64,000 bases of DNA from a bacterium. GTDB taxonomy: Bacteria > Patescibacteriota > Minisyncoccia > Phycocordibacterales > VMGT01. Below the pieces are notes generated by a model. It ran no database searches. It was not told the DNA's origin and saw nothing but the letters and a program-made list of their open reading frames with translations. The DNA lies in the NCBI GenBank assembly GCA_030697645.1, contig JAUYPI010000006.1, positions 12,017 to 76,016 of the forward strand, read 5' to 3'. This document shows, in pieces, positions 7,575 to 47,983 of this stretch. Positions within the stretch are counted from its first letter, which is position 1. Every line of letters begins with the position of its first letter. The translations under genes and the position numbers were made by a program.

Positions 7575-7680
7575 TTAACGTTTAATTTTCAAGTCTCAAT
7601 TTCCAATTTTCAATCAATTTTCAATTACTCAATTTTCAAACACGACGTCGTTCGTTATTGAAAATTAGAAATTGAAAATT
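7575..7680. repeat. Family-1 AT-rich palindromic element (unit AATTTTCAAT), copy 1
   Basis: Tandem TTTTCAAT units, core CAAACACGACGTCG, inverted ATTGAAAATT units. Ends about 10 nt before the ATG at 7690. Confidence 0.8.
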
Positions 7681-7689
7681 GCACACGCT

Positions 7690-9636: not shown

Positions 9637-9772
9637 TTAATTTTCAATGCTCAATTTTCAATCAATTTTCAATGACCCAATTTTCAAACACGACGTCGTA
9701 CCGGCGCCGTCATTAAGTCATTGAAACATTGAAAATTTATTGGAAATTGCAAAATTGAAAATTGAAAATTTC
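9637..9772. repeat. Family-1 palindromic element, copy 2
   Basis: Between rpmJ stop and rpsM ATG. Core CCCAATTTTCAAACACGACGTCG. Confidence 0.8.
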
Positions 9773-25721: not shown

Positions 25722-25890
25722 GAATCGGAACGAGTAATCACTCACACCCGTCATTGCGAGCGGAGCGAAGTAATCCAGTTGTTGAGCCGTAATTCTGGAT
25801 TGCCTCGTCGCTCCACTCCGTTCCGCTTCTCGCAATGACGGCTGTGTTGTGCAGCTTTGTGATAGGTGTGAGTGATTACCGGAACGAATG
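25722..25890. repeat. Family-3 structured nested inverted-repeat element, copy 2
   Basis: Outer IR GGAACGAGTAATCACTCACACC/GGTGTGAGTGATTACCGGAACG. Inner IR CGTCATTGCGAGCG/CTCGCAATGACGG. Central hairpin AATCCAG...CTGGATT. Confidence 0.5.
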
Positions 25891-26254: not shown

Positions 26255-26294
26255 GAACCGTGCATAGAGGCGGGCATTGTCTCTCGTCTCTTTT

Positions 26295-26345
26295 TTGCGT
26301 CGTCTGTTTTCGTCTCTAAAAGCTAAAAGCTATCAGCTAACAGCT
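26295..26345. repeat. Family-2 palindromic element, copy c (short)
   Basis: CTCTAAAAGCTAAAAGCTATCAGCTAACAGCTT immediately upstream of the fusA ATG. Confidence 0.5.
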
Positions 26346-26351
26346 TGTACT

Positions 26352-29503: not shown

Positions 29504-29776
29504 CTCCTCGTTTATGAACAGGGTGAGATAATCGAAATTCTATTTCTTTCTTACCACAGGTGTCTTACAGGAGTCAACCGCGCCTCCCGTAATTTTTTCC
29601 CTATTCCTAATTTTTGGAGTTCAGATTTCCTAAACTCTGTCCGACATCCGATGTCGGAGTCGGACAGGAGATCCTATCATTCCCTCCCCGTGGCCTTTTG
29701 GCGTGGAGTGCACACGGGTACCTTTCTCTGGCGTATACCGAATGCATCAAGGCGATGGATTTAGTATAGTATACGT

Positions 29777-31106: not shown

Positions 31107-31124
31107 GGGAGTAAAATGCAAAGT

Positions 31125-31335
31125 TCAAAGCGCAAAACGCAAAACAACAACGCAAAATAACACAGTAAAATTCGAATTTCCAACCAACAAGCTCCAAATC
31201 AAATAAATTCCAAGCTCCAACCAACAAGCTCCAAACAAATTTCAAATTCCAATGCATCAAATCTCAAACACGCACGTCGTGTTTGGAAATTGGATTTTGA
31301 ATATTGGGATTTGTTTGGAAATTGTTTTTTGGAAA
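31125..31335. repeat. Family-1-variant giant palindrome (units TTCCAAA/TTTGGAA)
   Basis: Centre CTCAAACACGCACGTCGTGTTTGG. Arms with duplicated CCAACCAACAAGCTCCAAA. Outer arms GCAAAACGCAAAACAACAACGCAAAA / TTTTGCTTTTTGCACTGTTGTTTTTCGC. Confidence 0.6.
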
Positions 31336-31387
31336 TTGGAGATTCGTTTTGCTTTTTGCACTGTTGTTTTTCGCTTTACACTTTGCG

Positions 31388-32590: not shown

Positions 32591-32801
32591 GGGGGATGAT
32601 GGCGCAACCGCTCACGCCTTAAAATTTTGCGCTCGAGCTTCGGCGTTTAGAAATAACAGTCGCCTCATTGACGAAAAACGCATAACTCGCCTGCGGGCTC
32701 AAACAGATGCGTTTTTCTATTCGGCTCCTTTATTTCCAAAACGCCTCTCGCTATGCGCAAAATTTTAAGGCGTGAGCGGTTCCGGCGTGAGAGTGGTTTG
32801 A

Positions 32802-34779: not shown

Positions 34780-34910
34780 TCAAATTTTCAATTTTACAAT
34801 TTCCAATCAATTTTCAATGTGTCAATGACTCAATGACGGGCGAAGTCGTGTTTGAAAATTGGGTCATTGAAAATTCACTGAAAATTGAAAATTGTAAATT
34901 GAAAATTTCG
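34780..34910. repeat. Family-1 palindromic element, copy 10 (core in inverse orientation)
   Basis: Core CAATGACGGGCGAAGTCGTGTTTGAAAATTGGG. About 40 nt upstream of the rpsJ ATG. Confidence 0.8.
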
Positions 34911-34949: not shown

Positions 34950-35318
34950 ATGGTTACTAAATCAACGGCTCCGCGTAAGCGCGCCGCGGCAGCGCGCAAA
35001 AAGGAGGAGGTTTCGCACAAGCTCCGCATTCGCATCCGCGCCTACGAGCACAAGATTCTTGACTCGTCCGTAAAGCAGGTCATGGACACCGCGCTTCGCT
35101 ACGATGCGCGGGTCGAGGGTCCGACGCCGCTTCCGGTTGAGATCAAAAAGTACACAGTCAACCGCTCATCGTTCGTGCACAAGAACGCGCGCGAGCAGTT
35201 CGAGATGCGCACGCACAAGCGCCTCATTGACATCCTCGACCCGGCGCCGAAGTTGATCGAAGCGCTTACGAATCTCACGTTGCCGTCGGGAGTGAATGTG
35301 GACGTGAAGATGATGTAA
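34950..35318 (+). CDS. rpsJ: Ribosomal protein S10 with basic N-terminal extension
   Basis: 122 aa. Canonical S10 core (IRIRAYEHKILDSSVKQVMDTA..., PLPVEIKKYTV). Confidence 0.9.
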   Translation: MVTKSTAPRKRAAAARKKEEVSHKLRIRIRAYEHKILDSSVKQVMDTALRYDARVEGPTPLPVEIKKYTVNRSSFVHKNAREQFEMRTHKRLIDILDPAPKLIEALTNLTLPSGVNVDVKMM

Positions 35319-35324
35319 AGGTTT

Positions 35325-35438
35325 GAGCTTTTAGCTTATAGCTGTTAGCTTTTAGGGGTTGTCGCGGCGTGCGCGAAGCACGCAATCGTTAGTCTGTCGT
35401 GCCTCTAAAAGCTATAAGCTAACAGCTAAGAGCTTTTT
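35325..35438. repeat. Family-2 palindromic element, copy d
   Basis: GAGCTTTTAGCTTATAGCTGTTAGCTTTTAGG - core with hairpin CGTGCGCGAAGCACG - CCTCTAAAAGCTATAAGCTAACAGCTAAGAGCTT. Confidence 0.6.
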
Positions 35439-37478: not shown

Positions 37479-37614
37479 AATAATTTCCAATTTTCAATTT
37501 TGCAATTTTCAATCAATTTTCAATTATCTAATTTTCAAACACGAACGTCGCCGTGATTGAGTCATTGAAACATTGAAAATTTATTGAAAATTGAGCATTG
37601 AAAATTGAAAATTT
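37479..37614. repeat. Family-1 palindromic element, copy 11
   Basis: Starts 3 nt after rplD stop. Ends 5 nt before the rplW ATG. Confidence 0.8.
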
Positions 37615-38027: not shown

Positions 38028-38034
38028 TTTTACA

Positions 38035-38125
38035 TTTGACATTTGACGTTCGATCCTTGCAGGGACATCCGTCGTGGTCAAATGTTAATTGTCAAAGGTC
38101 AAATGTTGGTATTGGTTGAACTTCG
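38035..38125. repeat. Family-4 palindromic element (unit ACATTTGAC)
   Basis: ACATTTGACATTTGACG - GC-rich core TTCGATCCTTGCAGGGACATCCGTCG - TGGTCAAATGTTAATTGTCAAAGGTCAAATGT. Confidence 0.45.
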
Positions 38126-39003: not shown

Positions 39004-39090
39004 CGTGTTTAGAAAGTGGAAGGTGGAAAGTGGAGAGTAGACAGCGGCAACCAAAAACGAAAACCCACTTTCTACTCTCCCGTATGTTGT

Positions 39091-47437: not shown

Positions 47438-47983
47438 CCCGCGCTGTATGTGAAAAAGTTTATAAAGACACCCCGAGAACGAAACAAGTAGCGAGTCCGG
47501 TTCTTAATTGCTCGAGGTCTTTTGGGTAAGTCGGCTGCAGGTACGGGCACCCTTTGGTGGAATCAAATTTTAATGATCTGCAGCCGATGATAGAAAGACG
47601 GCGGGGAAGGCTGAGATGGTCTTTAGTAGAAAAGAGATTTAGTGTTGCATCCCCCGCCGCCGTATTTTGAAGGCCATTTTGGTGTATTCATCCTCTAGTA
47701 AAGTAGTAGGCTAGTTTCCAAAATGGCCTAAAGCGGAAAGAACTGGGCTATGGGCTAGAAGACAGCAGCAATGGATCGAGAAAAGAGGACTAGTGGACCA
47801 GTGCCCTAGAAATCATGGCTGCTGTCTCTTGTAGACATACTTGAACATATTTTTTCTTTTGTCAATTGACAAAATTCTCACTAGATGATAATAAAATCCA
47901 GCCAGGTTGTCTCGAACCTTTACAGGCCTCAACCTGCTCCCTGGCGGCAGGAAGGCACCTTTCACTATTTTGGAGGAACCGCA

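Follow-up and report, generated by a model that had tools for sequence, protein, structure and literature searches.

Palindromic elements with arms of tandem 7-nt units in operon spacers of a Patescibacteriota genome

We analyzed a 64,000-nt stretch of a bacterial genome (Patescibacteriota; GenBank assembly GCA_030697645.1, contig JAUYPI010000006.1, positions 12,017 to 76,016 of the forward strand), referred to as the window, and in it four copies of a palindromic element, referred to as family 2, which lie in the rpsJ–rplC, dnaK–dnaJ and ORF185–rplQ spacers and upstream of fusA (ORF, open reading frame). Family 2 is real, and is part of a wider class of palindromes that have heptamer arrays as arms and fill the spacers between genes of long operons. 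It is a small lineage-specific set in which a variable core is flanked by arms of tandem 7-nt units, (T)AGCT(NN) in the 5′ arm and the complementary unit in the 3′ arm. Heptamer-array palindromes are real and widespread intergenic repeats that have hardly been described. The literature searched, the coverage of which was incomplete, gave no account of palindromes with heptamer arms in genomes of the candidate phyla radiation (CPR), and this is absence of evidence only.

Results

Repeat unit and anatomy of the family-2 copies

The sequence AGCTNNNAGCT occurs 12 times in the window against 0.80 expected, and all 12 matches fall inside three of the four family-2 loci. A second sequence, AGCTNTTAGC, occurs 11 times against 0.51 expected, a count reached in none of 100 shuffles. 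Sliding local autocorrelation of the window for periods 3–12 gave 7 as the sole strongly autocorrelated period, and Tandem Repeats Finder reported period 7 with 4.3–4.9 copies at 17598–17628, 26316–26345, 35322–35355 and 35405–35434. The unit is a heptamer, AGCT followed by NNT in the left arms and ANN followed by AGCT in the right arms. The initial annotation had correctly located tandem AGCT-based units at all four places, and gave the unit as 10 nt; that 10-mer is one 7-nt unit plus the first three bases of the next. Head-to-tail 7-nt arrays of at least three copies are present, as in heptanucleotide repeats of the short tandemly repeated repetitive (STRR) type.

The four copies are not equivalent (Table 1). 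Two of them (35325–35434 and 17598–17709) are full palindromes, one is a weak mini-hairpin and one is a right arm alone, and an inverted partner is present in three of the four. The repeat itself is far above chance. The rpsJ–rplC element is a clean palindrome, with arms (35325–35355 and 35405–35434) that are 82–84% complementary and together give a predicted stem of ~31 bp with two 2 × 2 internal loops. Its predicted RNA fold has an energy of −56.1 kcal/mol (z = −5.9 against shuffled sequences), and its widest predicted pair lies 6 nt clear of the rpsJ stop on one side and 6 nt clear of the rplC ATG on the other. In the dnaK–dnaJ element the left arm is good and the right arm is decayed (−46.1 kcal/mol, z = −2.5), and the predicted stem begins 27 nt past the upstream stop and ends 3 nt before the dnaJ start. 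Upstream of the fusA copy lie a 13-nt repeat and a terminator-like hairpin (26266–26291).

A GC-rich hairpin core, earlier taken as a constant feature, is central only in the rpsJ–rplC copy; in the dnaK–dnaJ copy the GC hairpin lies within the degenerate right arm, and the ORF185–rplQ and fusA copies have none. Alignment showed that the copies share the arms and the junction between loop and right arm, (C/T)CTCT(C)AAAAGCTA, and that the cores are unalignable. The fusA arm (26314–26346) and the rplC right arm (35403–35435) are 91% identical over 33 nt. Through the junction and these right arms the copies align, modestly, beyond low-complexity similarity.

The initial annotation read the elements as the product of a shared design rather than of one mobile sequence. 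This idea stands, and more strongly than that annotation could show: the window holds at least five types of heptamer-armed palindrome, sister species have other heptamers in their spacers, and AGCT palindromes occur across phyla. Within family 2, the common junction and the 91%-identical right arms show that the copies are also linked by duplication; descent and shared design both apply. The units of family 2 and family 1 (ten AATTTTC-armed elements, Table 1) are not clearly unrelated, as had been stated: AGCTTTT and AATTTTC both consist of a self-complementary tetramer and a T-rich trimer and match at 4 of 7 positions, and the arms of both families have the same polarity, T-rich on the 5′ side and A-rich on the 3′ side.

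Gene context of the elements

Pfam assignments gave the gene orders rpoA-ORF185-rplQ-rplM-rpsI-grpE-dnaK-dnaJ and TrpRS-ORF115-fusA, in agreement with the gene contexts first proposed. By protein searches with RplC and DnaJ, the window belongs to Parcubacteria, close to Kaiserbacteria. Family-2 copies are confined to co-directional spacers in ribosomal-protein and chaperone operons, and the full copies occupy 111–112 nt of spacers of 123 and 142 nt. In all four copies the right arm ends 3–7 nt before the ATG of the next gene (rplQ, dnaJ, fusA or rplC). No Shine-Dalgarno (SD) site was found at any of the examined translation and chaperone genes, including these four, and ~8 of 46 genes overall have one.

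The types of heptamer-armed palindrome in the window (AATTTTC, AGCTTTT, ATTTGAC, GAAAGTG and CAAAACG/CCAAnnn) are all intergenic and lie between co-directional genes, as do ~17/17 of the individual heptamer elements. The predicted stem starts at most 11 nt from the stop codon in 8 of 13 elements, and ends at most 11 nt from the start codon in 9 of 13.

Comparison with relatives

Seven assemblies were compared for array differences, namely the window with L001 and L002, from the same population, and L003, L004, L005 and L006 from a sister species. An apparent 130-nt deletion among the sister-species assemblies was merely the unmatched end of a shorter locus.

The orthologous spacers of sister species (RplC 87–90% and DnaJ 83–93% identical) carry palindromes made of other heptamers. 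In L003/L210 (RplC 87%, DnaJ 93%) these use CAAAAGT/CAAAGCT, GCAAAAC and CCAATTT, and the spacers with other heptamer families are rplD–rplW, rplW–rplB, rpoA–rplQ, rplM–rpsI, rpsI–grpE, grpE–dnaK and that between the histidine-kinase (HK) and FIST genes. The sister-species rpsJ–rplC spacer begins with (TAGGTNN)×4, against (TAGCTNT)×4 in the window, and keeps the homologous 3′ end without a complementary arm. The dnaK–dnaJ spacer of the sister species contains an inserted ORF and no AGCT element; at dnaK–dnaJ such an element is absent from L210, L212 and L213. In another relative, L007, the rpsJ–rplC palindrome is of the AATTTCT/AATTCCC type. The rplD–rplW copy of the window retains a TTGAGC unit that resembles the unit of the sister species, a sequence likeness which hints at an old element that was later homogenized to match the family of the genome it lies in. 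The main heptamer family of L003 has the opposite arm polarity.

Occurrence in other lineages and in phage

The pattern (AGCTNNT)×3 + AGC was scanned in one genome per species, for which ~17 chance matches were estimated from 18 specified bases and uniform composition. At least 120 loci were found, in Acidobacteriota, Cyanobacteria, Bacillota, Bacteroidota and several CPR lineages. Among the matches listed, a complementary array lies within 200 nt downstream in 28 of 136 AGCT arrays and upstream in 2 of 136, the same polarity as in the window, and ~80% have no partner. AGCT-type palindromes of this polarity are present in distant CPR lineages, in Acidobacteriota, Bacillota and Bacteroidota, and in a phage. 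Layouts of stop, array, loop, array and ATG were found in L011, L166, L154 and L133, the latter three preceding rplB, rplV and tuf. In both full copies of the window the right arm is the unit-wise complement of the left in direct order; L166 does not have this order, and it was treated as chance. None of 46 cross-phylum AGCT palindromes lies inside a long ORF, and the median gaps to the gene ends are ~10–20 nt.

A metagenome scan with RplC returned relatives 43–67% identical and no close strains, and was the source of 80 CPR S10-operon loci. Heptamer arrays are common in these loci, and AGCT outnumbers the other palindromic cores (4 of 22 strict arrays). Viral contigs contained 19 ACGT-core arrays, and AGCT-core and AGTC-core arrays were equally common among the matches listed. 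Since viral contigs carry AGTC-core arrays as well as AGCT-core arrays, the heptamer habit is general and not specific to AGCT. A unit composed of a 4-bp palindrome and a triloop was considered as a general rule and rejected; it holds for AGCT and AATT, but AGTC-core arrays are equally common among the matches listed from viral contigs and most CPR units have no palindromic tetramer.

One contig (L246) carries a siphovirus-type tail-gene module (PHROGs), the tail homologs of which are only distant and from Firmicutes phages. It contains five AGCT-armed palindromes with the core GGCGCGC-loop-GCGCGCC, in both orientations, each between two tail genes.

Searches for known regulatory elements

Rfam gave no match at gathering score in the whole window. 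Scans of the window detected no promoter-like site (−35/−10 hexamers, 16–18 nt spacing) and no terminator-like site overlapping any family-2 copy, and the core hairpins of family 2 are followed by A-rich, not U-rich, sequence, which is not the arrangement of an intrinsic terminator. The elements of L003 were also not terminator-like. The controlling inverted repeat of chaperone expression (CIRCE), the HrcA operator TTAGCACTC-N9-GAGTGCTAA, gave no match at up to three mismatches. Avoidance of AGCT as a restriction site, or its use as a methylation sink, was rejected, as the window has no deficit of this tetramer (247 observed, 241 expected).

Table 1. Positions of the family-2 copies and of other features (window coordinates, except where a relative is named)
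Feature	Position	Strand	Remarks
rpsJ–rplC element, left arm	35325–35355	+	G-AGCTTTT-AGCTTAT-AGCTGTT-AGCTTTT-AG; begins 7 nt past rpsJ stop (35316–35318)
rpsJ–rplC element, core/loop	35356–35404	+	GC hairpin CGTGCGCGAAGCACG (35368–35382); beginning of junction CCTCTAAAAGCTA (35402–35414)
rpsJ–rplC element, right arm	35405–35434	+	CTAAAAG-CTATAAG-CTAACAG-CTAAGAG-CT; ends 7 nt short of rplC ATG (35442)
dnaK–dnaJ element, left arm	17598–17628	+	AGCTTTT-AGCTGTT-AGCTTAT-AGCTTTT-AGC
dnaK–dnaJ element, loop and degenerate right arm	17629–17709	+	right arm 17645–17672; inserted GC hairpin AGCCCTTTGGGCGCAAAGGGCT (17675–17696)
dnaK–dnaJ element, last unit	17699–17709	+	GGCTAAAAGCT; element ends 3 nt short of dnaJ ATG (17713)
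ORF185–rplQ, short copy	13324–13383	+	TTAGCTTTTAG paired with CTAAAAGCTAA; junction CCTCTAAAAGCTA at 13367–13379; ends 3 nt before rplQ ATG (13387)
Upstream of fusA, one-armed copy	26314–26346	+	CTCT-AAAAGCT-AAAAGCT-ATCAGCT-AACAGCT-T; ends 5 nt before fusA ATG (26352)
Family 1	7584–7681, 9639–9770, 10174–10307, 10755–10887, 11549–11673, 14174–14286, 14768–14886, 15501–15638, 34783–34907, 37482–37613		8 in one orientation, 2 in the other
ATTTGAC palindrome	38028–38115		
GAAAGTG palindrome	39004–39085		
Composite palindrome, 266 nt	31122–31387		between minus-strand histidine-kinase and FIST genes; nested CAAAACG arrays and 37-nt tandem unit containing AGCT
T[T/C]CACTA copies (examples)	49952, 50035, 50071, 50136, 50281, 53755, 53831, 54062, 54139, 54292, 54532, 54614, 55357, 55431, 55651	+	
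ORF185	12766–13323		rpoA–rplQ
Inserted small ORFs in relatives	L003 9077–9367; L210 9753–10001; L212 438–1046		ORF96 at tuf–rpsJ; weakly RelE/YoeB-like orf82 at dnaK–dnaJ; orf202 upstream of dnaJ (dnaK side presumed)

Discussion

Proposed origin and function

We tentatively favor the explanation that the elements are co-transcribed intercistronic mRNA hairpins, the hairpins being predicted, which could act in processing, as a barrier to decay or by masking the next start, and which could have arisen by slippage and inverted duplication followed by homogenization through recombination. The arrays would grow through slippage of units, and the second arm would come from inverted duplication or template switching. 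Copies would then spread between spacers and be homogenized by recombination, without a locally encoded transposase, which would account for families that are particular to one species. Because the elements lie inside operons they would be transcribed, and would fold into imperfect hairpins of ~30 bp. In this SD-poor organism such a hairpin may keep the start region of the following gene covered until it is opened by a terminating ribosome, which would open the base of the helix and so expose the next start, or by a double-strand RNase. The hairpin may also be a barrier or a processing site for mRNA decay. The T-rich-5′/A-rich-3′ polarity would keep a U-run from following the core hairpin, so that transcription would not terminate inside the operon.

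The closest experimentally tested analog is the 5′-untranslated region (UTR) of Haemophilus influenzae hmw1A/hmw2A, where (ATCTTTC)n makes up one side of a hairpin that RNase III cleaves, and changes in repeat number depend on transcription as well as on the hairpin (PMC12721329). In both systems a gene is closely preceded by a long imperfect hairpin that has a tandem heptamer array as an arm, and here this hairpin is predicted, for two of the four copies. The hmw hairpin is cis-acting and transcribed, with repeat dynamics tied to transcription and folding, and by analogy these properties may be shared with family 2. The hmw hairpin differs in having a heptamer array in one arm and a G-rich stretch in the other, at a single phase-variable locus, whereas in family 2 both arms are arrays, dispersed in operon spacers, and no length variation was seen.

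Several results weigh against this explanation. Two of the four family-2 copies do not give a convincing hairpin: that at ORF185–rplQ forms an 11-bp mini-hairpin with a fold indistinguishable from shuffles (z = −0.8), and that at fusA, which lacks the left arm, gives no hairpin from its right arm (z = +0.7). The sense strand was predicted to be the more stable in 25 of 44 elements and the antisense strand in 19 of 44 (Wilcoxon p = 0.53). The sign of the stability difference follows the element's own orientation, and the predicted folds bear no signature of selection on the mRNA strand as opposed to the DNA palindrome; as there is no sense-strand bias, nothing favors mRNA-level over DNA-level selection. 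Variation in unit number by slippage, a possibility raised in the initial annotation, was not seen in any array, either between the window and L001 or L002 or among L003, L004, L005 and L006, and the variation between strains known from STRR-type repeats was likewise not seen in these few assemblies. One relative (L008, 66% identical) has compact spacers and no arrays, and the elements are dispensable, because this organism lives without any. Among 29 cross-phylum AGCT palindromes with both flanks assignable, 21 lie between co-directional, 6 between convergent and 2 between divergent genes; since 21/29 is close to the proportion of gene pairs that are usually co-directional, operon spacers are not enriched beyond this clade. 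Finally, a mobile element would also be compatible with the shared irregular junctions and with near-identical copies, such as a pair of almost identical 110-nt copies in L003.

Alternative explanations

The elements could instead be non-autonomous mobile elements, either miniature inverted-repeat transposable elements (MITEs) or repetitive extragenic palindromic (REP) sequences and their paired form (REPIN). Their arms would be terminal inverted repeats or single-stranded DNA hairpins moved in trans, and effects on expression would be incidental. We regard this as unlikely, but it is the most serious of the alternatives. It would account for the idiosyncratic sequence that copies within a genome share (the junction CCTCTAAAAGCTA, the 91%-identical right arms, the 61–87% identity of family-1 copies over 95 nt and the L003 pair). 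It would also account for the two orientations of family 1 and of the phage elements, for the identical element-intrinsic strand asymmetry of fold energy in each family-1 copy, and for families that are species-specific and absent at orthologous sites of close relatives, as the AGCT element is from dnaK–dnaJ in L210, L212 and L213. However, no transposase domain or domain of a REP-associated tyrosine transposase (RAYT), including the PF01797 type, was found in the ~30 window ORFs scanned. Target-site duplications were not visible in the sequence at the flanks of the four window copies or the five phage copies, and no filled/empty site polymorphism was found in the seven assemblies. The unit composition of the arms varies while the cores are conserved (phage) or unrelated (family 2 of the window), which is unusual for terminal repeats, and nearly all spacers of the same operons are filled in two species, which suggests persistence over random insertion.

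Genomes of CPR bacteria are small and compact. It is rather improbable that the palindromes of this clade are a neutral by-product, in which heptanucleotide simple sequence repeats (SSRs) expand in unconstrained spacers and become palindromic via template switching, with no cellular role. Over-representation of heptamer SSRs, with polymerase slippage as the explanation, has been published (PMC4692102), and the frequency of partnerless arrays, including the fusA copy, the arm complementarity of just 72–84%, the lack of a sense-strand signal and the dispensability in L008 are as a neutral process would have them. Such a process fits poorly with arrays that are stable in populations, and with palindromes of 100–200 nt that are kept, across species and despite genome compactness, in almost every spacer of the most expressed operons of the clade. 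The 28:2 polarity bias among the matches listed and the tight fit to gene ends suggest constraint.

A bolder form of the mRNA-hairpin explanation, which we consider improbable, would make the elements a conserved cis-regulatory device common to several phyla. Register-flexible "zipper" hairpins between cistrons would be recognized by RNase III, by an RNA chaperone of the cold-shock or S1 type with a 7-nt footprint, or by both, and would set relative gene output in long operons of SD-poor bacteria and of phages, with transcription driving array growth.

We think it very unlikely that the arms are binding arrays for a single-stranded-RNA protein with a 7-nt footprint (cold-shock-domain, S1-type or HutP-like, NAG-N4) that would switch the hairpin and regulate translation. 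T-rich units resemble the heptamer preferences of cold-shock proteins (CSPs). The units have 4–5 conserved and 2–3 variable positions, like protein sites, and the orthologous rpsJ–rplC arrays retain TAG-N4 in two species (TAGCTNT and TAGGTNN); S1, Csp or CsrA binders have also been proposed by MacGregor for TAACTGA repeats upstream of fusA, L3 and S4 (PMC4679880). However, unit sequences differ completely between families of one genome and between sister species, so that one binder cannot recognize all of them. The arms of the main L003 family have the opposite polarity, and no candidate for the protein emerged. Promoters, intrinsic terminators or attenuators between genes are largely refuted for family 2 and have next to no likelihood, since no such site overlaps a copy, core hairpins are followed by A-rich sequence and Rfam gave no match, despite the terminator-like hairpin directly upstream of the fusA array and weak promoter-like matches (TTGAAA-17-GAAAAT) on both strands of the family-1 arms, 21 against 6.9 expected in the region.

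Comparison with known repeats and significance

Direct repeats of the heptamer TAACTGA are known from Beggiatoaceae, Cyanobacteria and Bacteroidetes, in 169 direct sets and one inverted set (MacGregor 2015, PMC4679880). Those arrays resemble family 2 in ending a few nucleotides before starts (including fusA, L3 and S4), in having downstream genes without SD sites, and in lying inside ribosomal-protein operons. They differ in unit and in being direct repeats, whereas family 2 has AGCTNNT units in inverted arms around a core; the fusA copy does resemble the TAACTGA type. Cyanobacterial STRR and the GGGAATC / GGGGA(T/C)T heptanucleotide repeats of Xanthomonas and Nostoc (Rehm 2015, PMC4692102) share with the present elements the presence of several unrelated intergenic heptamers per genome, and the filling of the same spacers in relatives with differing length and sequence. 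Occasional inverted pairs were noted in Xanthomonas, as in family 2. Those repeats are mostly one-sided and G-rich, with proposed quadruplexes, occur in other clades, and are not described as filling operon spacers from stop to start.

Arrays of the tandem interspaced guide RNA (TIGR-Tas) systems have ~36-nt units, made of two 8–12-nt repeats and two 9-nt spacers, with an adjacent Nop-domain tas gene and a terminator at the end (PMC12045711). They too occur in CPR bacteria and phages, and consist of short repeats in a periodic arrangement in which some positions are conserved and others vary. A TIGR array was excluded here, as family 2 has a period of 7 nt, 4–5 units per arm, scattered spacers, no tas gene, and ribosomal-protein and chaperone genes as neighbors.

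REP sequences, bacterial interspersed mosaic elements (BIMEs), REPINs and MITE-like palindromes such as the enterobacterial repetitive intergenic consensus (ERIC) and Correia elements are dispersed non-coding hairpins of ~100 nt, co-transcribed and species-specific, that affect mRNA stability, processing and translation. REP units are palindromes of 20–40 nt with a conserved tetranucleotide and an associated RAYT gene, and MITEs have defined terminal repeats and target duplications. The present elements are likewise dispersed hairpin palindromes in species-specific families. In contrast to REP and REPIN, family-2 arms are tandem 7-nt units and not a single 20–40-nt palindrome paired as inverted doublets, and in contrast to MITEs there is no target duplication at the window or phage copies. 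A parent insertion sequence (IS) sharing the ends of the elements was looked for in the window, with none found. To our knowledge, no REP/BIME/REPIN or MITE-like element has arms of 7-nt tandem units.

The clade keeps palindromes of 7-base units, 100–200 nt long, in almost every spacer of its ribosomal-protein and chaperone operons, and one unit family gives way to another between species. An action of the hairpins on mRNA would make them a general means of coupling or tuning neighboring genes without SD sites, and would give a testable function to the long-noted heptamer excess of prokaryotes. If they are selfish or neutral, they would be a compact case of concerted repeat evolution in minimal genomes.

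Additional observations in the window

Family 1 has the structure (AATTTTC)n ... CAAACACGACGTCGT ... (ATTGAAA)n. The first in-frame ORF starts of secY, rpsI and rplW fall within right arms of this family, and because of this location the automatic gene starts are probably wrong. With several ORF starts probably mis-called inside right arms, the elements, if selfish or neutral, would also be a practical hazard for assembly and gene calling. The composite palindrome between the HK and FIST genes has a family-1-like core, AAACACGCACGTCGTGTTT, and a predicted fold in the gene sense of −99.9 kcal/mol; the orthologous spacer of L003 contains a different heptamer palindrome.

The motif T[T/C]CACTA occurs 20 times in the whole window against 7.1 expected, with 15 plus-strand copies in the 8 kb of 47900–55700. 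By eye, the copies lie in the loop of 60–80-nt hairpins with varying stems, often with ATTACTA 10–20 nt upstream. They are often paired ~75–80 nt apart, and flank a gene for a 1043-aa methyltransferase-SNF2 protein (50574–53705). This looks like a separate repeat family with a conserved loop and variable stems.

Three further repeats and a conserved segment were noted. A palindromic element of ~90–145 nt with the ends GTCATTGCGAGCG ... CTCGCAATGAC is present in two copies, at 103–245 and 25752–25842, in unrelated spacers. A palindrome of the GTCCGACATCGGATG type, at ~29640–29680 and at L003 9790–9850, occupies non-orthologous sites and is a dispersed repeat common to both species. The FIST–response-regulator spacer contains a 30-nt inverted repeat (32603–32632 and 32755–32784), 97% complementary and 122 nt apart, with a similar one in L003 (6478–6700). 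A segment of ~45 nt after the rpsI stop (TTTACTCCATTG[C/T]GGGCGAAGGGGGTCGGGGAAACTGTAGTTT; 14714–14760, and 6395–6440 in L210) is conserved in both species, and the heptamer palindromes beyond it are unrelated; it may be a conserved structured element that ends the rplM-rpsI unit.

No tRNA or transfer-messenger RNA (tmRNA) genes were found in the window. The translation of ~61700–62150 resembles the C-terminal part of an IS30-type transposase, with no intact ORF, which makes it a candidate remnant on reading of the sequence; no heptamer arrays lie beside it. Small ORFs that differ between relatives and have no family match occupy the same operon spacers, and neither ORF185 nor the ORFs inserted in relatives gave informative family matches. 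Palindrome-filled spacers may double as gene entry points. A perfect sigma-70 consensus (TTGACA-16 nt-TATAAT) is located at 11693–11720, just past a family-1 element, with the rpoA start 32 nt further downstream, and this predicted site suggests that rpoA has its own promoter within the operon.

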